From Candidatus Chlorohelix allophototropha (GTDB lineage Bacteria; Chloroflexota; Chloroflexia; Chloroheliales; Chloroheliaceae), in NCBI RefSeq assembly GCF_030389965.1, contig NZ_CP128399.1:2670799-2702798 (forward strand): a DNA stretch of 32,000 nt, given 5' to 3'. The notes under the pieces were generated by a model that had not been told where the DNA came from, searched no databases, and saw only the letters and a program-made list of their open reading frames with translations. Of this stretch, positions 7,410-17,824 are shown in pieces (the stretch's first letter is position 1; each line of letters begins with the position of its first letter). Both the position numbers and the translations under genes were made by a program.

Positions 7410-7898
7410 TCAGGGAAGGTGCTCTTGCTCGATTTCTACGCCCAGATAGCGGGTTTCTAGCGAGTCGGAGGAAATATCATCCCAAAAGCGATCTTTCAAA
7501 TAGGTGGGATAGACCGGGAGGTTTACTAATTCGTGGGCATGGAACCAACGGGTGTGCCTTTCCAATTGTTGCGGGTCGGTAACATCTGCAATAGTGGTGG
7601 CGCTCAGTTCACCCGTAAAGCGGCTGATTAGAAAAGCTAACTCAAGATGGTGGCGATGGCGGCTTGGTTCAATAAATTCTCTGAAATATAAAAGCCGACC
7701 TTCGGTTTCTACTTCAAGCCCTGTTTCTTCTCGAAATTCTCGGCGCAACGCCTCAAAAACCGATTTGTCCTGTGATTCTTGCCCACCGCCCGGTAATGTC
7801 CAGAATTCTTCGTGGCTATCGGGAGTATGCTCGTGTACCAGCAAAAGCCTGTTCGCCGCATCAAGCATGACTCCGGCTACTCTGATACGATAATTCAA
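7410..7898 (-). CDS. NUDIX hydrolase
   Basis: Nudix box 'GGGQESQDKSVFEALRREFREETGLE' (GX5EX7REUXEEXGU). The TTG start overlaps the upstream gene's TGA stop (TTGA, 7895-7898). Confidence 0.8.
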   Translation of the reverse strand: MNYRIRVAGVMLDAANRLLLVHEHTPDSHEEFWTLPGGGQESQDKSVFEALRREFREETGLEVETEGRLLYFREFIEPSRHRHHLELAFLISRFTGELSATTIADVTDPQQLERHTRWFHAHELVNLPVYPTYLKDRFWDDISSDSLETRYLGVEIEQEHLP

Positions 7899-9373
7899 TT
7901 GAACTCCAACTCCTTATCCTGAGTGTAGTTCAAACCCAGCTTTAGCGCAATTTCCGCTTTCTGCAACTCGCGCCCCAAATAGCTGTAATGCTCTTCCAGC
8001 GAAGCCAATTTTTCGTGGGCAATCAATAGGCAAAGCTGACGGGCAGTTTTCCCCTCAAAATAATAGGGTGTATTACCTTCGATGGTGCTATGCTGCACCT
8101 TAATCAAACTCCGTTCGCGTTCAAGCTCGATGATAAAATAACCACGCGGGTCGCTACGCCAATCTAAGCGGCGTTTCTTGAAAGAGTCGATGGTATCGAG
8201 CGCGAATTTCCACTTATCGGCATAAATATGTGCCGAGTGTGAAATGATGGTAAGCGCACCAAGCCTCAAGCCCGTGTCGTCCGCGATTTCCTTTTGCAGT
8301 TTGCGCAAGGCATAGGTATTTTGTGCCCACGCGGTGTAAATATCGTGACTACGGAAACGGGCGGTCATATAAAGTGCGCCATCCTGTACCCCTGCCGAAA
8401 CTTCCAGCAAACAGGGCGGGTTATCACCCACGCTATCCTGTTCGACATCCCACGTCACCGCCACGGCGCGGCGGGTATGGTGCGCCTCGCGCAAACGCTC
8501 TTTCATCCGCGCAATTTGGTCGTGACCTTCCTCACCGAATGAACGCAGCCGTTCTCCATAGGTATAGGCTATTCCGGGTTCTTTCTCCGCGCTCAGGATT
8601 TTGGGATAGTAATTTTCTAGTTCGGCGCGACTAAAAGGCAAGTAATCAGCCCAAACGATGTCATCAGGGTTTTCATCGGTGATTACCGCTACCGTATTGT
8701 AAATCTCGCGCTGTTGCTGAGAATACTCAGTAGGCTTGATTTGCCCGAAGCGCATCACCAATTGCATTACTTCCAGCCATGTTTCGGCAACAGTTTCGCC
8801 CTGTACCCGAAATCCGGTGCGTTCGCTGGGTAGCGCCTTGCCGCCTTCTGGGGCAAGTTCGGGGAAAGTGCGAGGTTCGGCAAAAGGAGGAAGCGTAGCC
8901 AACTTAGCCAGTTCTAGCTTGATTTGCTCGGCAATTGCTTCGGGGTTTTTAGGATAGCCTTTAGCCGGACGCAAGTCAATGAGTTGCACCTGTTGGCGCA
9001 ATTCCTCCCACGCTTCGAGGGGAATACCTTCATCCAGTTTAGCCTGTGTGCCGGGAATAGTATGGTTCGCGCCAAGCCCTTTGGCAAAAAAGCTTGCCAA
9101 CGCTTCCCCGGTAGAGGATTGGTCAGCGCCACAAAGTATAAGGTAGCGTATTTGGGGAAACATGAAGATATTACGCGCCATCAGGTTGATACCCGCAAAG
9201 CTGTAAAGGTTGGCGCAGATGAAATAATCCGCAGTATCCAGTTTTTGGGCTATCAGATGACGCTGAGTCCAGAGGGTGCAAATGCCCACATTAGATTCAG
9301 GGTTGCCGATTTGGAGGTCTTTATAACTTATAAGATCGGTCAAATTATAAGTTGCGCCAAGTTCTGCGGTCAT
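7895..9373 (-). CDS. Fusion protein: N-terminal MtrA-like domain + C-terminal thymidylate-synthase (ThyA)-fold domain
   Basis: C-terminal ThyA catalytic signature is conserved: 'RRAVAVTWD', 'NPPCLLEVS' (nucleophile Cys), 'RFRSHDIYTAWAQNTYAL' (R-S-x-D plus Asn), 'HSAHIYADKW' (H..Y). The N-terminal 'VGICTLWTQ...ANLYSFAGINLMARNIFMFPQIRYLILCGADQSSTGEALASFFAKGL' follows the MtrA-like pattern (..TL.. / ..N..IR.lilcG.. / G.aL..l..nG). ATG at 9373. Confidence 0.7.
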   Translation of the reverse strand: MTAELGATYNLTDLISYKDLQIGNPESNVGICTLWTQRHLIAQKLDTADYFICANLYSFAGINLMARNIFMFPQIRYLILCGADQSSTGEALASFFAKGLGANHTIPGTQAKLDEGIPLEAWEELRQQVQLIDLRPAKGYPKNPEAIAEQIKLELAKLATLPPFAEPRTFPELAPEGGKALPSERTGFRVQGETVAETWLEVMQLVMRFGQIKPTEYSQQQREIYNTVAVITDENPDDIVWADYLPFSRAELENYYPKILSAEKEPGIAYTYGERLRSFGEEGHDQIARMKERLREAHHTRRAVAVTWDVEQDSVGDNPPCLLEVSAGVQDGALYMTARFRSHDIYTAWAQNTYALRKLQKEIADDTGLRLGALTIISHSAHIYADKWKFALDTIDSFKKRRLDWRSDPRGYFIIELERERSLIKVQHSTIEGNTPYYFEGKTARQLCLLIAHEKLASLEEHYSYLGRELQKAEIALKLGLNYTQDKELEFN

Positions 9374-9376
9374 TTA
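9292..9376 (-). repeat. Direct-repeat copy A (functional 5' end of the ThyA-like gene), left boundary of the AT-rich islet
   Basis: Aligns without gaps to 12506..12590, with about 71/85 identical positions by hand count. Blocks are identical at both ends: 'tagattcag' and 'tctgcggtcattta'. Weaker similarity continues through the RBS to ~9388 / ~12603. Confidence 0.85.
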
Positions 9377-9395
9377 TTGCTATCCCAAAGCTTTG

Positions 9396-10463
9396 TTAAT
9401 TATATTTTGTAGTTGGAAGATGAGGACCAATATATCCAATTATAATTTTACTTTCTGTAGTGGTTTGATATGGATAAAAATGCAATCTCCAAGCATTTTG
9501 TGGGAGTGAACAATGCCATTCAAACGTTCTAGTTTGACCATCGGGACAAACAAAAGTTCGTTTAGACGCATATTCTGCATTATTCATTGTAGACTCGCTT
9601 TCCTTTCGAGGTTCTCCACTTACTTGTGAAAAATCAAATGATCCTCGAGTCCGAGTACATGCTACCCTTTCAAGCTCTAATAATCGTTTTTTTATTGATC
9701 CAACCAGCTGATTTCCGTTAAGTAAGCCTTTTAGAGCATTACCAACTGAATCACAAAAATCTAATGATGGGAAAAATTCGTGTATGTTATCCCATAAATC
9801 TTTACCGTTATTAATCTTATCCAGCCGTTCAGCTTGTTCGGATGGAAGGTCGGTAGGTGAGAAAATTAGTGGGAATTTTTCCCGGATAATTTTGTCTGTA
9901 GGTAATTGTATATTTGGATCGATGGTTTCAATTTCTACCTCTATGTCAAGATGAGTAGAAACAGAAGTTAATTTTAATGTTGCTATATTTAATCCTATAC
10001 CAAAACTATGTTGGTGAAATTTACAGGCTGTTGCAGTTGTTAATAACTCACCAATTCGCTTTTTATTTTCTTCAAGAATTTGTCTAAAAATAAATTCATT
10101 TGGCAAAATTTCAATTGTTTTATGTATGGCTAAATGCCCTAAGGCATCAAATTTATTTTCTATGTCACCAATAATGGACTCTTCATCATTATTTTTATCC
10201 CTAAAAAACTGATTCAATTTTTGTGTAATCGATATAATTCTTTTGCTATTAATCCCATATCTTCTAAAATCTTCAAACATAGGGAATTTTTGATTATTTA
10301 TAAGATTGTATGTACATTTCGTGGAATGGAACCATTTATATGGCGAATTTGTGGCTTCAATAAGCCATGCCTCAAGAGCATCTACCCATTCTTCAACTGT
10401 AATTTTTTCAGCAGTATCAGAGGGTAATGTCAAAATATGAGGGTCAATAAGAAAACTTATCAA
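9396..10463 (-). CDS. Hypothetical protein, partner of the islet ATPase; candidate effector, no domain recognised
   Basis: 355-aa ORF with AT-rich codon usage matching the ATPase gene. Its TTG start overlaps the ATPase TGA stop (TTGA at 10460-10463). The next in-frame Met is codon 62. C-terminal motif: 'CPDGQTRTFEWHCSLPQNAWRLHFYPYQTTTESKIIIGYIGPHLPT'. I could find no HNH, TOPRIM (E..DxD) or clear PD-(D/E)xK motif. Confidence 0.7.
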   Translation of the reverse strand: MISFLIDPHILTLPSDTAEKITVEEWVDALEAWLIEATNSPYKWFHSTKCTYNLINNQKFPMFEDFRRYGINSKRIISITQKLNQFFRDKNNDEESIIGDIENKFDALGHLAIHKTIEILPNEFIFRQILEENKKRIGELLTTATACKFHQHSFGIGLNIATLKLTSVSTHLDIEVEIETIDPNIQLPTDKIIREKFPLIFSPTDLPSEQAERLDKINNGKDLWDNIHEFFPSLDFCDSVGNALKGLLNGNQLVGSIKKRLLELERVACTRTRGSFDFSQVSGEPRKESESTMNNAEYASKRTFVCPDGQTRTFEWHCSLPQNAWRLHFYPYQTTTESKIIIGYIGPHLPTTKYN

Positions 10464-12334
10464 GACCTACCCTCCACTCGACTAATAATACTCTCTGATG
10501 TAATGATGCTTTCTTGAATTAAGGTTTCATCAAAGAACCCTTCAGGCCAGTTTTCGATAGCGCCATCTGATGAAATTTGGATTTTTTCAAAAGTGGTAGA
10601 GCCTGAGTCATCTTGCTTGGCAAAATATATAACGCAGTCACTTTTTTCCTGACCACCCGCTTGGACAATATGTAAACGAAGTTGGTTAATTAGGTTTTCA
10701 CTATGAGTTTCAACCAAACATTGTTTGCCACACTTAACCAATCCCACTAGAAAATCTCCTAATCTTGATTGTACTCTAGGATGCAAGTGGAGTTCCGGTT
10801 GTTCTACAATTAATAGTGTTCCTTTTGGGGCTAATAAACCCATTACCAGAATTGGGAGTATTTGGCTTACACCTACGCCAACTGCAGTTAGAGGCAAAGG
10901 GGCATTACCTTGCTTTGGAATAATTTGCCAAATTACGCCAGTTTGTCCTGCAACCTCAATTTGGACGCGCTCTCCGACATTTAAATACTTAACCCAATTA
11001 TCCAATGCATTTTTTAATTTATCCTTGTTTATATGTGATTCATAAGGATTATAATACTCTACAAAGTTATTTTGATTCGTATCATAAACATAGGCTGCAT
11101 ATTCTCCTCTGATACCAACATCATCAACTTCACTGCTTGGAGAAAATCTTTGCGCAGCTTGGGGATCTGCACGTAATGGACCTAAATAGCGAATTCGTCG
11201 TGTGAAATATTTGGCGATGTAATCTGATATTCGCTGCCATACTTCTAATTCAGGATTTTCAAAGGAAATTATTTCAATTCCCTCATCACTGCTATTAGGA
11301 AGTTCTTCATGTTTTAAGTATTCTTCGGTTATTAACGCTAGTATTAATCTATAGGCTGAAATAGTATTCCTTCTAAGGTGTAAGAGTTGTATTTTTTGGA
11401 GCCACTTGAATAAATCAAGTAATTTATCTCCTTCAAAGGAGGGGCTTATTTCAAGTTTATTCAACAAATCAAAGAAGTTTTGTTTGAAGTCTGAATCAAG
11501 CTCGATATCTTGAATCTCTTTATTTAAGGCAGTTGATCGCGTTGTTTTAGGAAAAGAAGTCATTTCTCTTAAATTCACTCTTCTCTCGAATAAATCAGAA
11601 AAGTATCTTTCATACTCTCTTTTTTTACGTTCTACCAACGAGTATTTTCCATAAAATCTTCTCGGGATAAAATGAGAAAGAGAAACTAAATATTCTTTCT
11701 TTTGTCCACCTTTATCAACTTTTACGAAGTAAGTTTTGTCGTCATCACCAAACAAGGATTTATAAATATTGTCTGGGATAACATTCGAAAAAAAAGTTCC
11801 CCTTAGTGTTTGATCCATTTCGGCAATATTTAATTGGTGCAGATTTTTAGGATTATTTTCTTCCGGGAAAAGCTCCATTTGATATAGCAACGATCTAGTT
11901 TCTAATTTTATAGATTTAAGAGATATTTTTGAAGCTTGATCACTTGAAACAGTTTGTTTATTTGGGATTAAACCACTAAATTTAGCGGAAACCTTTACAG
12001 TATCATTCAATGATTCTCTGGGTTTTCGCGAGGGAGCTCGGTCTATTGGTACTATTTGATCTAAATCCAATTCAAAATCAAGCTCGATAGTTTTATTTCT
12101 TGATTTGTTTTTTAATATATCCTTAAATTGACCAAGTTGAAGAAATAATCCATTAATTATCAACGGGCGATCAGCAATTGGGTTACTCAGTGTTTGAGCA
12201 ACCATCAAGATTGACTGTAGAATACTACTTTTCCCTGAGCTATTCTGTCCCGATAGCACAGTAAGCCCTGCTAATTCAAGCTCACCTGAGTCATCTATTG
12301 GTTTAAAACGTTTTATTCTCCACATCTTTAGCAT
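10460..12334 (-). CDS. ABC/SMC-type (AAA_15/AAA_21-like) ATPase with a ~440-aa insert and a C-terminal 'WPEGFF' module
   Basis: Walker A 'GQNSSGKSS' (aa 29-37, nt 12224..12250). Signature-like 'GVGVSQILPIL'. Walker B/D-loop 'LLIVEQPELHLHP' (aa 507-519, nt 10778..10816). H-loop 'ETHSE'. C-terminal 'ENWPEGFFDE'. ATG at 12334 with AAGGCAGG upstream. Confidence 0.85.
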   Translation of the reverse strand: MLKMWRIKRFKPIDDSGELELAGLTVLSGQNSSGKSSILQSILMVAQTLSNPIADRPLIINGLFLQLGQFKDILKNKSRNKTIELDFELDLDQIVPIDRAPSRKPRESLNDTVKVSAKFSGLIPNKQTVSSDQASKISLKSIKLETRSLLYQMELFPEENNPKNLHQLNIAEMDQTLRGTFFSNVIPDNIYKSLFGDDDKTYFVKVDKGGQKKEYLVSLSHFIPRRFYGKYSLVERKKREYERYFSDLFERRVNLREMTSFPKTTRSTALNKEIQDIELDSDFKQNFFDLLNKLEISPSFEGDKLLDLFKWLQKIQLLHLRRNTISAYRLILALITEEYLKHEELPNSSDEGIEIISFENPELEVWQRISDYIAKYFTRRIRYLGPLRADPQAAQRFSPSSEVDDVGIRGEYAAYVYDTNQNNFVEYYNPYESHINKDKLKNALDNWVKYLNVGERVQIEVAGQTGVIWQIIPKQGNAPLPLTAVGVGVSQILPILVMGLLAPKGTLLIVEQPELHLHPRVQSRLGDFLVGLVKCGKQCLVETHSENLINQLRLHIVQAGGQEKSDCVIYFAKQDDSGSTTFEKIQISSDGAIENWPEGFFDETLIQESIITSESIISRVEGRS

Positions 12335-12425
12335 AAATCAACCTGCCTTACTTGTTATAAATTATAAAAATTTCTTAACATTTGGATTTTTCAGTGCAAA
12401 AATAAGTTTAGAGCAATTCTGAAAA

Positions 12426-12587
12426 CTAGAGCGCAAAGAAGGTTAAATAAGTCGCGTTTGTAACAAGCAAGTCATTACAATGTAAATATTCACTTCCAAA
12501 TTTTGTAGATTCAGAACTGCCGATTTGTAGGTCTTTAAAACTGATAAGGTCGGTAATGTTAAAAGCTGCGTCAAGCTCTGCGGTCAT
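12426..12587 (-). pseudogene. Relic 5' fragment of the ThyA-like gene, stranded behind the ancestral RBS and promoter
   Basis: ATG 12587 is preceded by a strong SD (GGGAGG). It encodes MTAELDAAFNITDLISFKDLQIGSSES, which matches 20/27 residues of MTAELGATYNLTDLISYKDLQIGNPES at the start of the intact gene. The frame then runs into islet DNA and stops at a TAG (12426-12428), 53 codons in total. Confidence 0.75.
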
Positions 12588-12590
12588 TTA
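12506..12590 (-). repeat. Direct-repeat copy B (relic gene 5' end), right boundary of the AT-rich islet
   Basis: See copy A. The repeats are in the same orientation and 3214 bp apart start to start. Confidence 0.85.
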
Positions 12591-12612
12591 TAACTACCTC
12601 CCTGAAAACGAC

Positions 12613-12687
12613 TAATCCACAAATTTGTGTGGTTATCCACAACTGCTAGGCACAAGGCATTAAAAAATTACTATATATTGTGGATAA
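12613..12687. promoter_or_regulatory. Cluster of DnaA-box 9-mers
   Basis: TAATCCACA (12613-12621, one mismatch), TTATCCACA (12633-12641, perfect) and TGTGGATAA (12679-12687, perfect on the minus strand), read against the TTATCCACA consensus. An AT-rich tract (aaaaaattactatatatt) lies between the boxes. Confidence 0.55.
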
Positions 12688-12742
12688 CTTAGAAGGTCTA
12701 ACATGTTTTACCATAATGAGCGGGATATGTCAATATAATTCA

Positions 12743-12772
12743 GTGGGTAAACGGTGGGTAAATATATTTACC
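12743..12772 (+). promoter_or_regulatory. Tandem GTGGGTAAA repeats (11-bp phasing) overlapping a perfect 16-bp palindrome; candidate operator upstream of the paa-type promoter
   Basis: GTGGGTAAA at 12743-12751 and 12754-12762. GGTAAATATATTTACC at 12757-12772 is its own reverse complement. It lies ~20 bp upstream of the -35 element at 12791. Confidence 0.4.
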
Positions 12773-12790
12773 TGATTTTCAGGTTATACC

Positions 12791-12819
12791 TTGACAGCCC
12801 CCGCAACGGGGAACATAAT
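12791..12819 (+). promoter_or_regulatory. Sigma70-like promoter for the PaaX-like/paaK operon
   Basis: TTGACA (12791-12796), a 17-nt spacer, then CATAAT (12814-12819). The -35 hexamer coincides with the TTG 'start' of track ORF 12791..13177, which argues against that long form. Confidence 0.5.
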
Positions 12820-12907
12820 ATGCTACAGAATTTTCACTATCGTGCAAATTTCGTTGTATGTTGTGAGAAAAGACTCAAGCAGCTATATTTGCTCTGAGGT
12901 AGTACAA

Positions 12908-13177
12908 ATGCTCCCGCGTTCAATGTTCTTTACGCTTTACGGGGTTTATATCCGGCATTTTGGTGAAGAAATCCGCATGGGCAGCCTGATAAGATTGCTG
13001 GCAAAGGATTGGCGCGGCGGTGAAGCTTTTGACCTTTTCCGGCGCTATGACGGTTTGTTAGCTGAAGGAGCAGGACGTTATTTTTATCGGCTTTATACGC
13101 CTGATGTTTCAGCCGCCCTCGATGAAAAAGCTATTAGAGGGTTACGCGCTCAGCTTGACCCTTTCAGCGTTAGTTGA
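12908..13177 (+). CDS. Small PaaX-N-terminal-like winged-helix protein (~89 aa); may be a truncated PaaX remnant
   Basis: 'SMFFTLYGVYIRHFGEEIRMGSLIRLLA...GRYFYRL' parallels the PaaX N-terminal pattern (S.LYGD....GGEIW.GSL..LL....GR.S.Y.L). ATG 12908 has a GAGGT SD ~7 nt upstream. The ~200-aa PaaX C-terminal domain is absent. Confidence 0.45.
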   Translation: MLPRSMFFTLYGVYIRHFGEEIRMGSLIRLLAKDWRGGEAFDLFRRYDGLLAEGAGRYFYRLYTPDVSAALDEKAIRGLRAQLDPFSVS

Positions 13178-13195
13178 AAATATGACAAAAGTGAG

Positions 13196-14539
13196 ATGAA
13201 TAGAATGTATTTCAACGCCGAAATAGAAACTATGCCCCGCGATGAGTTGCGGAAATTGCAACTGGAACGCCTTAAACAAACGCTTGGCTATGCTTATACA
13301 AAAGTGGCTTTCCATCAGCACCAGTTTCAACAAGCCAATGTTACGCCTGATTCGTTGCATACGCTGGAAGATTTGAACAAATTCCCCTTCATAACCAAAC
13401 CACAATTGCGAGAAAATTACCCGTTCGGGCTGTTCGCGGTCAAGCCCAACGATAAGGATAAAATAGTGCGTCTGCACGCTTCCAGCGGCACAAAAGGCAA
13501 ACCGACAGTAGTGGGTTACACCGCCCACGATATAGAAGTATGGGCGGAGAGTTGCGCCCGCGCAATCGCCTGCGCGGGAGGCAAACCCGGTGATGTGTTG
13601 CATGTGGCATATGGCTACGGGCTTTTCACGGGCGGGTTAGGCTTGCACTACGGAGGCGAGAAACTCGGCGCGTGTGTGATACCCGCATCTGGAGGCAATA
13701 CGCCACGTCAGATATTATTGATGCAAGATTTTCAAGCGCAAGGGCTGTGCTGTACCCCTAGTTATGCCTTGAATCTGGCAGAATATCTCAAAGAGCATAA
13801 TATCCCGTTGGAAAGTCTGAATCTCAAGTACGGTATTTTGGGTGCAGAACCCTGGACTGAGGAAATTCGGGTCAAGGTTGAGGAGGGCTTGGGCTTGATT
13901 GCGCTGGACATCTACGGGTTGAGCGAAATCACCGGACCGGGCGTATCAATGGAATGTCCGTACAAACAGGGCTTGCATATCTGGGAAGATTATTACCTAC
14001 CGGAAATAATAAACCCTGCTACCCTCGAACCCTTACCGGACGGTGAAATCGGCGAACTGGTCTTTACTACGCTGGCAAAAGAAGCCATCCCTATGATTCG
14101 TTACCGCACCGGCGACTTGTGTAACCTAACCTACGAAAAATGCGATTGCGGACGCACGCATGCCCGCATGGGCAAAATCAAAGGGCGCATAGATGACATG
14201 CTGATTGTGCGTGGCATCAATGTTTTCCCTTCCGAGATTGAGCGCGTGCTACTGGAATTTGAGGAACTCGCGCCACATTATCAGATTGTGCTGGAGCGCC
14301 CGGAAGTGCTGGATGTTGTGACGGTTCATTGCGAATCCACCACCGCCTTTACAGTGAGTGTCTTCGGAGATGCCGAGCATGACGAGGAACATCATCTTTT
14401 GAGCAGTTTGCGTCAACATATTATGTTGAAACTGAGAGAGGGTCTGGGAGTCAGTTTGCAGGTGAAAATCAACCCACCTCACACCATTCCCCGCAGCGAA
14501 GGCAAAGCGGTGCGCGTAGTGGATAATCGACCAAAATAA
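13196..14539 (+). CDS. paaK: Phenylacetate-CoA ligase
   Basis: N-terminus 'MYFNAEIETMPRDELRKLQLERLKQTL' is typical of PaaK. AMP-binding motifs 'SSGTKGKPT', 'YGLSE' and 'YRTGD' are present. The start may be ATG 13205 (MYFN...) rather than 13196. Confidence 0.9.
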   Translation: MNRMYFNAEIETMPRDELRKLQLERLKQTLGYAYTKVAFHQHQFQQANVTPDSLHTLEDLNKFPFITKPQLRENYPFGLFAVKPNDKDKIVRLHASSGTKGKPTVVGYTAHDIEVWAESCARAIACAGGKPGDVLHVAYGYGLFTGGLGLHYGGEKLGACVIPASGGNTPRQILLMQDFQAQGLCCTPSYALNLAEYLKEHNIPLESLNLKYGILGAEPWTEEIRVKVEEGLGLIALDIYGLSEITGPGVSMECPYKQGLHIWEDYYLPEIINPATLEPLPDGEIGELVFTTLAKEAIPMIRYRTGDLCNLTYEKCDCGRTHARMGKIKGRIDDMLIVRGINVFPSEIERVLLEFEELAPHYQIVLERPEVLDVVTVHCESTTAFTVSVFGDAEHDEEHHLLSSLRQHIMLKLREGLGVSLQVKINPPHTIPRSEGKAVRVVDNRPK

Positions 14540-14571
14540 AATTCTTATAGCTAATAATCGTGAGGAAAAAC

Positions 14572-14880
14572 ATGGTTGTTATGGTAGCGCTGTACAAAGA
14601 ACCCGCCAACCGGGCAGAATTTGATAAATATTATTGGGAAACACATTTGCTGCTTGCCGGAAAAATCCCCGGCTTGTTAAAAAGTGAAGTATGCACCTTT
14701 TACGAACTAGAGGGCGGGGGTGAGCTTCCCTATTACCTAATGACCAAACTTTATTTTAACAGCAAGGAAGAAATGGCAGCCGCTTTCGCCACCCCTGAAG
14801 GACGCGCTACCGCCAAAGACCTGCGGAATTTCACCACACCGAGCAGTGTCACCATCACTTACGCCGAAGTTAAAGAATAA
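14572..14880 (+). CDS. EthD-family (TIGR02118-like) small protein
   Basis: 'MVVMVALYKEPANRAEFDKYYWETHLLLAGKIPGL' fits the EthD-domain N-terminal pattern. ATG 14572 follows a GAGGAAAAAC SD. The upstream GTG 14560 in the track lies within the SD. Confidence 0.6.
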   Translation: MVVMVALYKEPANRAEFDKYYWETHLLLAGKIPGLLKSEVCTFYELEGGGELPYYLMTKLYFNSKEEMAAAFATPEGRATAKDLRNFTTPSSVTITYAEVKE

Positions 14881-14896
14881 GAAAGGGTATGGATAA

Positions 14897-15673
14897 ATGG
14901 GCTTTGAGAATATTATCTATGCGAAAGTGGGAGTAGGTATCGCTAAGGTAACGCTGAATCGCCCCGAAGCGATTAACGCTTACACGCTGCTGATGCTAGG
15001 CGAGATGGCAGAGGCGTTTGCACAAGCCAAAGCCGATTCTGAAGTTCGCACCGTTATTCTGACCGGGGCAGGGCGTGGTTTCTGCGCAGGGGCTGACCTA
15101 CGCACCACCAGCACAATGGATTTTGAGAACGCACTACGTACCTATTATCGCCCTATGATTGAAGGCATTACCGGAATGGGTAAACCTGTAATCGCAATGG
15201 TAAACGGAGTAGCAGCGGGCGCGGGTATGTCCACCACTCTCGCTTGTGATTTCCGGGTAGCAGCTACTAACACACGCTTTGTAACCGCCTTCTCTAAAAT
15301 AGGGTTAGTGCCAGACGCGGGTATGTCATACCATCTACCGCGCCTTATCGGAATTGCCCGCGCTCAGGAAATGATTTCTCTGAACCGGGATGTGAGCGGG
15401 GAAGAAGCGGTATCAATAGGCTTAGCAACCAAAGTAGTAGCCCCTGAAGAACTTGAAAAAGCTACGCTGGAAATGGCGCACTCGCTGGCTAATACCACTA
15501 CGCTGGCTTTTGGCATAACTCGCCAGATGTTGCATAGCGCCTTGCAGATGACTCTGGATGAAGCGTTGGCACAGGAAGAAAAGAATCAGGCAATTGCCGG
15601 AGCGAGCGAAGATTTCAAAGAAGGGGTAGCCGCCTTTATGGAGAAACGCGCCCCAAATTTCAAAGGGAAGTAA
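14897..15673 (+). CDS. Enoyl-CoA hydratase/isomerase (crotonase family; PaaG/PaaF-like)
   Basis: Crotonase oxyanion-hole motifs 'ILTGAGRGFCAGADL' and 'IAMVNGVAAGAGMS'. Confidence 0.85.
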   Translation: MGFENIIYAKVGVGIAKVTLNRPEAINAYTLLMLGEMAEAFAQAKADSEVRTVILTGAGRGFCAGADLRTTSTMDFENALRTYYRPMIEGITGMGKPVIAMVNGVAAGAGMSTTLACDFRVAATNTRFVTAFSKIGLVPDAGMSYHLPRLIGIARAQEMISLNRDVSGEEAVSIGLATKVVAPEELEKATLEMAHSLANTTTLAFGITRQMLHSALQMTLDEALAQEEKNQAIAGASEDFKEGVAAFMEKRAPNFKGK

Positions 15674-15704
15674 TTTTTTGAAGTAGTTGTAAGGAGAAGT
15701 ACAA

Positions 15705-16523
15705 ATGGCAACCACTATTACTATGAGTGAAGCTGAGATTGAAGCGGCAATGCTGGCAAAAATCGAGAATGGCGAAAAGCTTGAGCCAAACGACCCGATG
15801 ACCGCCGAATACCGCGAGTTGCTGCTGAACCTGCTTACCATGCAAGCGGATAGCGAGCTTTCCGGCGGGTACGGCTATATCCCATGGATTAGCCAAGCGC
15901 CCACCATCGAGGAAAAATTGATTGTTGCCAATATTGTGCGGGACGAGATTTTGCATGGCAAACGCATGTATAAATTGCTGGAAGATTTGGGGGTAGAAGT
16001 CGATTCGCGTATCAGGGAAAACGATGAAGCTTTTCTGTATCGGCTGGACGATAACAGCGCCAACATCGGGACACAACGCGCCAAAACCGATAAGCGGGTT
16101 AACATCTTCTACTACCCGATTGAAACTTGGACTGATTTTATAATGTTCAATTTCTGCATGGATCGCGGAGCGGGTCACCAATTGCATGATGCGCTACATT
16201 GCAGCTACGCACCATGGGCGCGGGTCACCGAACAAATCTTCAAGGAAGAGGTAACACATGTGGCGCATGGCGAGAAGTGGGTAAAGAAATTGGCACAAGA
16301 CCCCGCAACCCGCGAGGAATGTCAGCAAACCTTTAACAAATGGTATCTGCGCACGATGAACATATTCGGGCGCGGTAACAGCCCCAAAAACGCGCTGTAT
16401 CGCAAATATCGCCTCAAGTTGCGCGATAACGATGAAGTGCGCGATACTTTTCATCGGGAAGTGGTTGAATTGGTTACAAAGTGGGGGCTGACCGTACCGG
16501 AATGGAAACCGGAGAATATATAA
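15705..16523 (+). CDS. PaaA/PaaC-family ferritin-like di-iron protein (phenylacetyl-CoA epoxidase subunit A-like)
   Basis: 'LLTMQADSELSG', 'RDEILHGKRMYKLLEDLG' and 'FKEEVTHVAHGEKW' give E..H di-iron ligand pairs in a PaaA-like context. AAGGAG SD 8 nt upstream. Confidence 0.7.
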   Translation: MATTITMSEAEIEAAMLAKIENGEKLEPNDPMTAEYRELLLNLLTMQADSELSGGYGYIPWISQAPTIEEKLIVANIVRDEILHGKRMYKLLEDLGVEVDSRIRENDEAFLYRLDDNSANIGTQRAKTDKRVNIFYYPIETWTDFIMFNFCMDRGAGHQLHDALHCSYAPWARVTEQIFKEEVTHVAHGEKWVKKLAQDPATREECQQTFNKWYLRTMNIFGRGNSPKNALYRKYRLKLRDNDEVRDTFHREVVELVTKWGLTVPEWKPENI

Positions 16524-16566
16524 CGAGCGTTATATATTCAGCCGAGAAAAATAAGGGAAATAGGCG

Positions 16567-17766
16567 ATGGAAGAAGCGGTAATTGTCTCGGCAGTGCGCA
16601 CCCCTATTGGGCGGTATGGAGGCGCATTGGCAACAGTGCGCCCGGATAATTTGGGCGCAATCGTTATTGCCGAAGCAATCAGGCGCACAGGTATAGAAGC
16701 AAGCATGGTTGAAGATGTAATCTTCGGCTGTGCCAATCAGTCGGGCGAAGATAACCGCAACGTGGCACGTATGAGCCTTTTGCTGGCAGGCTTGCCCATT
16801 GAAACGGCGGGTGTAACGGTGAATCGTTTGTGCGGTAGCGGACTGCAAGCGGTAAACGATGCGGCACGTGCCATCAAAGTGGGCGAGGGCGAGGTACTAA
16901 TAGCTGGCGGAGTAGAGAGTATGACCCGCGCTCCTTTTGTAATGGCAAAACCCACCGAGGCATGGCAGCGGGGCAACCCAACTTTGCATGATACTACGCT
17001 CGGTTGGCGTTTCATCAATCCGCGCCTTTCCGAGATGTACTACCCTTACAACATGGGCGAAACCGCCGAAAACGTGGTGGACAAGTATAAAATCAGTCGA
17101 GAAGATCAGGATTTGTTCGCCTACAATTCGCAGAAGCGCGCCACCAATGCTATCGGTGAGGGAAAGTTCAAAGCAGAGATTGTTCCGGTGAAAGTGCCCC
17201 AACGCAAAGGCGAACCGTTTCTGTTTGATACGGACGAACACCCCCGCGCCGATACTACTTTGGAAGCTCTTGCAAAACTCAAACCCGCTTTCCGCAAGGA
17301 TGGAACTGTAACCGCCGGAAATAGTAGCGGCATCAATGATGGGGCTGCTGCGCTGGTGCTGATGTCCGGCAGCAAAGCAGCACAATTGGGTTTGAAACCT
17401 TTGGCGCGGATAGTGACATCAGCGGTGGCAGGGGTTGACCCGGCTACTATGGGGCTTGGACCTATTCCTGCCAGTCGCAAGGCGTTGCAACGCGCCGGGC
17501 TTACGGTAGCTGACTTAGATTTAATTGAGATTAACGAAGCCTTTGCTAGCCAAAGCCTCGCATGTATGCGCGAACTAGGACTCGACCCCGAAAAGGTGAA
17601 CGTGAACGGCGGCGCAATCGCGCTAGGGCACCCGCTTGGTTGTAGCGGGGCGCGCATGCTTACTACTCTTTTATACGAGATGGAACGGCGCGGCTCAAGA
17701 TATGGGCTGGCGACTATGTGCATCGGGGTAGGGCAGGGCATCGCAACTATCATAGAACGACTATAA
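16567..17766 (+). CDS. Acetyl-CoA C-acyltransferase / 3-oxoadipyl-CoA-type thiolase (PaaJ/FadA-like)
   Basis: Thiolase active-site motifs '[12 protein letters not shown]' (Cys nucleophile), 'NEAFASQ' and '[20 protein letters not shown]'. Confidence 0.9.
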
Positions 17767-17792
17767 ACTCCCTTATCTCCTGCTTTTAAAAG

Positions 17793-17824
17793 ACCCTCGG
17801 CTTGTTATTTTACCGAGGGTTTTT
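17793..17824 (+). terminator. Rho-independent terminator of the paa-type operon
   Basis: 8-bp stem accctcgg (17793-17800) / ccgagggt (17813-17820), a 12-nt loop, then TTTT. Confidence 0.7.

Follow-up and report, generated by a model that had tools for sequence, protein, structure and literature searches.

In this study, we describe a 3.1-kb, AT-rich defence islet inserted into the start of a ThyA-like gene in Candidatus Chlorohelix allophototropha. The window, that is, the whole stretch analysed, comprises 32,000 nucleotides (contig NZ_CP128399.1, positions 2,670,799 to 2,702,798 of the forward strand). The start of this gene is present twice, in diverged form, once on each side of the islet-specific DNA (9385-12505). 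An unoccupied site in the sister species Ca. Chlorohelix sp. ELA319 confirms that the block is an insertion with a copy of the gene start at either border. The cargo is a predicted two-gene anti-phage cassette (an NsnB-like ATPase and an NsnC-like effector) that may have been acquired horizontally. As to the route of entry, the best reading, at about even odds, is a remnant of a site-specific element, or a cassette mobilised in trans, that brought its own copy of the gene 5′ end. Overall, the islet is real but fairly ordinary: a recombinase-less defence islet, flanked by putative attachment (att) sites, of an already known sort.

Two copies of a gene start delimit the islet

A window-wide repeat search gave a single outstanding match, an ungapped direct repeat of 91 nt (9292-9382 versus 12506-12596) with 82% identity and a spacing of 3214. 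When the two copies were compared by blastn, 86 nt aligned at 83.7% identity (E = 1.5e-21). The initial annotation, made from the letters alone, had correctly placed an 85-nt repeat with 71 of 85 positions identical (14 mismatches on recounting). Its translations also hold, namely MTAELDAAFNITDLISFKDLQIGSSES for the distal copy and MTAELGATYNLTDLISYKDLQIGNPES for the N terminus of the ThyA-like gene. The identical block around the ATG, ATAAATGACCGCAGA, measures 15 nt instead of the 14 nt counted earlier, while the 9-nt identical block at the gene-internal edge, CTGAATCTA, was reported accurately. The latter occurs twice in the window, both times in the repeat, and the homology of the distal copy to the ThyA-like gene ends after it. 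The copies differ by 6 synonymous and 8 non-synonymous changes (Nei-Gojobori). Seven residues are replaced as a result; G/D is among these replacements, as are N/S and P/S, both of which fall in the otherwise conserved GNP motif, and the earlier description of the differences as mostly synonymous or conservative was therefore only partly right.

The repeat copies sit exactly at the borders of the low-GC (guanine plus cytosine) block and contain the target-gene end. GC content is 0.30-0.40 between the copies and ~0.50 outside them; the islet as a whole has ~33% GC compared with ~50% for the genome. GC at third codon positions and codon usage of the two 27-codon copies (37% versus 41%, hand count) were uninformative as a clue.

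An empty site in a related genome, with the promoter region joined straight to a single 5′ end and the gene, had been envisaged earlier, and ELA319 provides it. A scan of species-representative genomes recovered a 92%-identical ThyA-like ortholog in this sister species (contig L008), and a JGI metagenome yielded the identical sequence (L011). L008 7992-10547 aligns to window positions 9382-6822 at 88.6%, and L008 7711-8080 aligns to 12885-12508 at 81%. Specifically, the upstream region of ELA319 joins directly to one 5′-end copy and the gene, with no islet between them. Identity of the upstream regions is 91% in the 100 nt nearest the start and 70% further out, and the same TTATCCACA palindromes are present in both. 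This makes the 3.1-kb block an indel whose limits are set by the two copies. It consists of 9385-12505 plus one repeat copy; its edges match those of the repeat to the base distally and within ~2-4 nt proximally.

Six public C. allophototropha contigs encode the exact ThyA-like protein. All six carry the islet or break inside it (99.96-100% identical), and no within-species empty site was found among them. Orthologs from beyond the genus were considered as a polarising outgroup and discarded (identity ≤71%, unalignable N termini, no synteny).

Divergence of the two copies

The proximal, distal and ELA319 alleles were compared three ways over positions −9 to +82 (92 nt). ELA319 differs from the proximal copy at 9/92 positions and from the distal copy at 10/92, and the two copies differ from each other at 16/92. 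The distance of each copy to ELA319 is no different from the divergence of the gene as a whole (11.8% at the nucleotide level; synonymous divergence, dS, 0.60 and non-synonymous divergence, dN, 0.036). Since the copies are about equally distant from ELA319, the native one is not identifiable from these values. In other words, either could be native, and the earlier proposal that the gene-attached copy is an element-borne surrogate is not established. Furthermore, as the copies differ more from each other than from ELA319, they are not sisters relative to it.

A duplication that postdates the split from ELA319 predicts that ELA319 is the outgroup and that the expressed copy has no more private changes than ELA319. 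We counted 7 private changes in the proximal copy, 8 in the distal copy and 1 in ELA319, together with one site where all three differ. The 7:1 relative-rate contrast between the proximal copy and ELA319 gives p = 0.035, or 0.055 when the three-way site is counted for both. The position of ELA319 between the copies and the 7:1 ratio of private changes thus disfavour models that start from identical copies. An originally identical duplication of the target, including the recent in situ duplication into sister copies that the initial annotation had listed as an alternative, is weakly disfavoured (p = 0.035-0.055).

The match of ELA319 (L008 7992-8083) to the two copies (9292-9384 and 12506-12598) is patchy: codons 9-17 agree with the distal copy, and the segments on either side, namely the untranslated region (UTR) with codons 1-8 and codons 20-27, agree with the proximal copy. 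This clustering stands out only marginally from chance (p = 0.018-0.09 in a 3SEQ-type test and 0.05-0.08 in a runs test; 15 sites). ELA319 also has only 1-2 private differences in 92 nt, compared with ~5.4 expected from the gene-wide divergence (p = 0.03-0.09). The pattern suggests that recombination took place here in the past or that codons 1-27 are under exceptionally tight constraint. Both observations would suit an arrangement that already existed in a related Chlorohelix strain and came in from there as a whole by homologous recombination, or an ancestral arrangement from which ELA319 lost the islet by recombination between the copies; the patchwork would then be a recombination scar. 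However, no more than those 15 sites carry the signal, one crossover between the copies would not yield three segments, and all C. allophototropha contigs carry the islet. We take this explanation as a minor possibility, and it bears on the polarity and route of the event, not on its original mechanism.

The proximal copy retains the family-wide G-N-P-x-S motif (as GNPES), and its three replacements (F/Y, I/L and F/Y) are all conservative. The distal copy has the replacements G6D, T8A, N24S and P25S. This distribution fits an expressed proximal copy and an unselected distal copy, and has no bearing on their origin. Two coding copies held to the constraint seen across the gene are rejected by the 8:6 split of non-synonymous and synonymous changes (p = 0.001). 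The split agrees with two coding copies if the N-terminal constraint was relaxed (p = 0.17), with a coding copy paired with a neutral one (p = 0.26-0.34) and, marginally, with two neutral copies (p = 0.06). The earlier claim that both copies diverged while coding is therefore neither supported nor refuted, as one coding and one neutral copy fit just as well.

Cargo genes

The 624-residue product of the first islet gene matches Pfam AAA_15 (1.7e-24) and DUF3696 (2.6e-11) as well as PADLOC NsnB (1.6e-77), and the NsnB match also holds for its N-terminal half. The second product matches PADLOC NsnC (7.8e-39) across residues 214-354, that is, its C-terminal ~140 residues. It has no Pfam family, and its N-terminal ~210 residues gave no significant match, defence profiles included. 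Neither a match to NsnA nor a third gene was found in the islet, and the closest related locus likewise has two genes only. Since NsnA is absent, the cargo is an NsnB/NsnC-like pair that falls short of a canonical Menshen system.

Another Chloroflexota genome (L006 5737-9100, also L007) holds the closest relative of the cargo: an ATPase with 55% identity (P0122), followed by a partner that is also 355 aa long. These genes form a ~3.2-kb AT-rich block (GC 0.30-0.41 versus ~0.52) after a pyruvate phosphate dikinase gene. NsnA-less NsnB/NsnC pairs seem to travel as bare two-gene cassettes.

A contig of the same strain from another sample (L004, SRR24769763) has a 1-nt deletion in a T6 run at window positions 10637-10642, inside the nsnB-like gene. 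The deletion truncates the protein to 604 aa and removes DUF3696. One substitution (11157) also falls in this gene, which accounts for 2/4 differences in 10 kb. The frameshift could reflect decay, phase variation or an assembly error.

Islet ends

The motif CAAA(N1-2)TTTGG occurs at both termini of the islet, within CAAAATTTGG at the outer end and CAAAGCTTTGG at the inner end, and nowhere else in the 32 kb. When pairs of 20-mers were drawn at random from the AT-rich islet, 11% of them matched the alignment of the two termini (p ~0.1), and the terminal palindromes were accordingly downgraded as strong evidence of a transposon. The motifs could be terminal repeats, recombinase arm sites or chance in AT-rich DNA.

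If they are terminal repeats, the islet may be a transposase-less mobile insertion cassette moved in trans by a DDE transposase, and the 92 nt would be a long target duplication, identical at the time of insertion. The layout agrees with this, as a long repeat and a short terminal motif precede the cargo and a short terminal motif and a long repeat follow it. IS1549 and IS1634 indeed make direct repeats of 8-514 bp (PMC2266710). The dS between the copies (0.46) is lower than that between the species (0.60), so an old insertion after the species split is arithmetically possible. Nevertheless, the copies are just 82% identical, and ELA319, which should be their outgroup, is not (9, 10 and 16 differences). 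The expressed, constrained copy would have gained 7 private changes against 8 in the dead copy and 1 in ELA319 (p = 0.035-0.055). Considering also the resampling result and the lack of a transposase in the window, we find transposition unlikely.

Two further types of insertion were rejected. The 32-kb window has no tRNA gene, there was no Rfam match, and a tRNA-type attachment site was therefore dismissed. Integron insertion does not duplicate its target; an integron cassette was rejected for this reason and because no attC-like structure is present.

Origin of the islet

Site-specific integration would explain the arrangement as follows. The block 9385-12505 would be horizontally acquired DNA that inserted at the start of the ThyA-like gene in a Campbell-type reaction. 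The catalyst would most likely have been a site-specific recombinase, which either acted in trans or has been lost since. The partners would be the chromosomal site and a ~92-nt incoming sequence, itself an already diverged version of the gene start that comprised the ATG and 27 codons together with 9 nt of UTR. One copy would be left on each side: the gene-attached copy would keep the ThyA-like gene intact, and the other would stay behind the old promoter and ribosome-binding site (RBS) as a dead 53-codon open reading frame (ORF). The present state would be an att-flanked, recombinase-less islet, termed a cis-mobilizable element (CIME) when derived from an integrative and conjugative element (ICE) or an integrative mobilizable element (IME).

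Where the attachment site of an element lies in a conserved gene, a conserved stretch is the typical target. The homology of the two copies ends within the most conserved N-terminal stretch of the protein, between IGNPES and NVGICTLW, and we count this in favour of site-specific integration. The same holds for the repeat at the borders of the low-GC block, the empty site in ELA319, the finding that the copies are not sisters relative to ELA319, the 7:1 contrast and the defence nature of the cargo. Moreover, Campbell-type integration of DNA that carries its own copy of the target leaves the gene end duplicated on either side of the insert. We infer that one copy came in with the element, and likewise which copy this was, where the crossover lay and that the ThyA-like and NUDIX genes are read through from upstream of the islet. 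Restoration logic would favour a crossover at the gene-internal homology edge, with the gene-attached copy imported, as the initial annotation had proposed with the 9-nt block CTGAATCTA as candidate core; a crossover in the internal identical block TAAAGACCT would suit the patchwork about equally.

Several observations weigh against this explanation. Neither the islet nor the ORFs of ≥120 aa across the 32-kb window contain a recombinase or transposase domain, as the initial annotation had stated for the integrase. The non-coding DNA of the islet amounts to 171 nt and 11 nt only, which leaves no room for a decayed recombinase. A degenerate 26-nt pattern from the gene 5′ end was used to search JGI metagenomes and IMG/VR for further alleles and a free attP; for an attP or an autonomous relative with this sequence, the former gave the ELA319 empty site only and the latter nothing. 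None of four other thyA-like loci has a duplicated 5′ end, so there is no sign of recurrent use of the site. The NsnC-like protein had no match among known plasmids and phages (tblastn), and the related cassette in L006 has no integrase, no flanking repeats and no thyA fragment. Lastly, the statistics on in situ duplication rest on fewer than 20 variable sites.

Some of these findings are also what a one-off illegitimate or replication-error event would leave. Foreign DNA that came in at a staggered break, or through template switching, may have led to an in situ duplication of the 92 nt with no mobile-element machinery, followed by drift. In line with this, no recombinase, transposase or relative with the same ends was found. 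The related NsnB/NsnC islet in L006 is likewise bare, AT-rich, free of an integrase and without long repeats; such cassettes thus enter genomes without a mobile-element signature. An adjacent indel, that of the phenylacetate (paa) cluster described below, has only GAGG microhomology at its junction, which shows that illegitimate events occur at this locus. On the other hand, the distance and relative-rate arguments against an originally identical duplication apply equally here. A random 92-nt duplication that starts 9 nt before the ATG and saves the start codon also asks a lot, even though selection on a probably important gene would filter for such an outcome. On balance, we judge an event of this type improbable.

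Site-specific integration could also be taken further. The islet might be a living member of an undescribed class of minimal (~3 kb), recombinase-free defence cassettes of Chloroflexota. Each would combine cargo with an att region that doubles as the replacement RBS, start codon and N terminus of an essential nucleotide-metabolism gene, and would be moved in trans by a resident integrase, with host expression through read-through as an addiction or retention device. Defence genes would then be placed under the DnaA-box promoter of a host gene. We consider this quite improbable.

Host operon and neighbouring sequence

On the minus strand, the order of transcription is the upstream region (12885-12597), the detached start (12596-12506), 171 nt of non-coding DNA, the 624-aa gene, the 355-aa gene, a spacer, the 492-aa ThyA-like gene and the NUDIX gene (Table 1). 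The spacer between the nsnC-like stop and the ThyA-like ATG is 22 nt. The islet genes are thus placed between the ancestral promoter and RBS and the ThyA-like and NUDIX genes, in the same orientation, as first described. The ThyA-like protein shares its domain architecture with 529 homologues and is 92% identical to its ELA319 ortholog (DNA, 88.6%), and the ThyA-like/NUDIX arrangement is also found in ELA319.

The RBS ahead of the ThyA-like gene is now GGGA, weaker than the ancestral GGGAGG. The latter, with its ATG, would now start a dead-end ORF of 53 codons, which is called as a gene in the public annotation of the same strain. We found no minus-strand terminator-like site in 9374-9395 or 12335-12425, in agreement with the initial annotation, and, apart from weak internal matches, neither sigma-70-like nor terminator-like sites on this strand in 12600-9373. 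Therefore, read-through from upstream of or within the islet is the simplest expectation for the ThyA-like and NUDIX genes, and co-transcription of the islet genes with them is plausible. The islet leader had no Rfam match.

Table 1. Features of the islet and the interrupted operon (window coordinates)
Feature	Coordinates	Strand	Description
NUDIX hydrolase gene	7410..7898	-	Pfam NUDIX 1.6e-17; overlaps ThyA-like stop by 4 nt; downstream member of interrupted operon
ThyA-like target gene, 492 aa	7895..9373	-	MtrA-like, thymidylate-synthase and DUF4346 (pterin-binding) domains (Pfam)
Proximal repeat copy	9292..9382	-	Working 5′ end of ThyA-like gene: 9 nt of 5′ UTR, ATG 9373-9371, codons 1-27 ending CTGAATCTA
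Inner end of islet-specific DNA	9385..9395	-	Between nsnC-like stop and proximal copy; CAAAGCTTTGG; contains perfect palindrome CAAAGCTTTG
nsnC-like gene, 355 aa	9396..10463	-	Predicted effector; overlaps nsnB-like stop by 4 nt
nsnB-like gene, 624 aa	10460..12334	-	ABC/AAA_15 ATPase with DUF3696 tail
Islet leader, 171 nt	12335..12505	-	Non-coding, upstream of nsnB-like gene; outer end CAAAATTTGG (12505-12496)
Relic ORF, 53 codons	12426..12587	-	27 distal-copy codons fused to 26 codons of islet sequence
Distal repeat copy	12506..12596	-	Detached 5′ end beside ancestral promoter: RBS GGGAGG (good), ATG 12587-12585, 27 codons (...GSSES), then islet DNA
Ancestral upstream (promoter) region of ThyA-like gene	12597..12885	-	Aligns to ELA319 L008 7711-8000; now split from gene by islet

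Just upstream of the ancestral operon start, at 12613-12687, there are two perfect and one near-perfect DnaA-box sequences (TTATCCACA) in palindromic arrangement. These sites are conserved in ELA319 (L008 7900-7975) and absent upstream of more distant orthologs. Across the window, sites of this type with ≤1 mismatch number 16, with 7 expected. This may point to DnaA-linked control of an operon for deoxythymidine monophosphate (dTMP) synthesis, an operon that now reads first into the defence genes.

Adjoining the islet, a phenylacetate-type cluster at 12886-17817 (PaaX-like fragment, PaaK ligase, EthD, enoyl-CoA hydratase, PaaA/C and thiolase) is absent from ELA319 at the corresponding place. 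The cluster is ~4.9 kb long and of normal GC content, and its flanks lie ~20 nt apart in ELA319. Its junction has GAGG(T/G) microhomology only, with no long repeats. It is a second, independent indel. The ORF 12908-13177 upstream of the PaaK ligase gene encodes 89-128 aa, according to which start is used. Its match to the PaaX profile is confined to positions 1-30, and it looks like a truncated or minimal PaaX-like regulator.

Significance and comparison with known systems

The islet is a cleanly delimited defence cassette inside the start of a conserved nucleotide-metabolism gene that it has not destroyed, and a sister species preserves the empty site. Its host represents a recently described lineage of phototrophs, and next to no work has been done on mobile elements there. 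If the gene-attached copy came with the element, integrase-less cassettes of no more than 3 kb can bring a working replacement gene start, and such starts would be a useful marker for finding other cassettes. Besides, the ThyA-like/NUDIX operon, which normally follows DnaA-box-like sites, now lies 3.1 kb further away behind two defence genes, a testable physiological point.

Among known systems, the SXT/R391 elements insert at the start of prfC by a Campbell-type reaction that likewise duplicates the gene end (PMC2791158). The islet shares with them the logic of an element-borne copy of a gene start. However, SXT/R391 elements are ~100 kb long and have their own tyrosine integrase, Xis, conjugation machinery and near-identical att sites, whereas the islet has 3.1 kb, two cargo genes, no recombinase and copies that are only 82% alike. 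CIMEs are decayed elements that have lost the integrase and kept attL and attR, and they are expected to depend on the integrase of a related element (PMC5704250). The retained border repeats and the missing integrase are common to CIMEs and the islet. In contrast, CIMEs have been described mainly in Streptococcus, were identified because an autonomous element with the same att sites was known, and usually occupy the 3′ ends of genes or tRNA genes; the islet is at a gene 5′ end, and no cognate autonomous element or integrase was found. IS1634, IS1549 and mobile insertion cassettes may resemble the islet in having long direct target repeats (8-514 bp, PMC2266710) that flank an element with short terminal repeats. 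Their duplications are identical when made, though, and the islet has no transposase in the window and a statistically unconvincing terminal motif.

Defence modules are typical passengers of mobile islands (PMC12065111). In the Menshen system, the proposed roles are transducer for NsnB (ABC ATPase with DUF3696), effector for NsnC (inactive PIN and nuclease) and sensor for NsnA (ParB-DUF262) (PMC12065111). Like NsnB, the islet ATPase combines an ABC ATPase with DUF3696; for the second protein, the match is to the C-terminal (effector) part of NsnC profiles, and the two genes overlap as an operon, as in Menshen (PMC12065111). The islet differs in lacking NsnA, as does its closest related locus, in a ~240-residue insertion of the ATPase relative to the NsnB profile and in an NsnC-like N-terminal part of ~210 residues that matches no defence profile.

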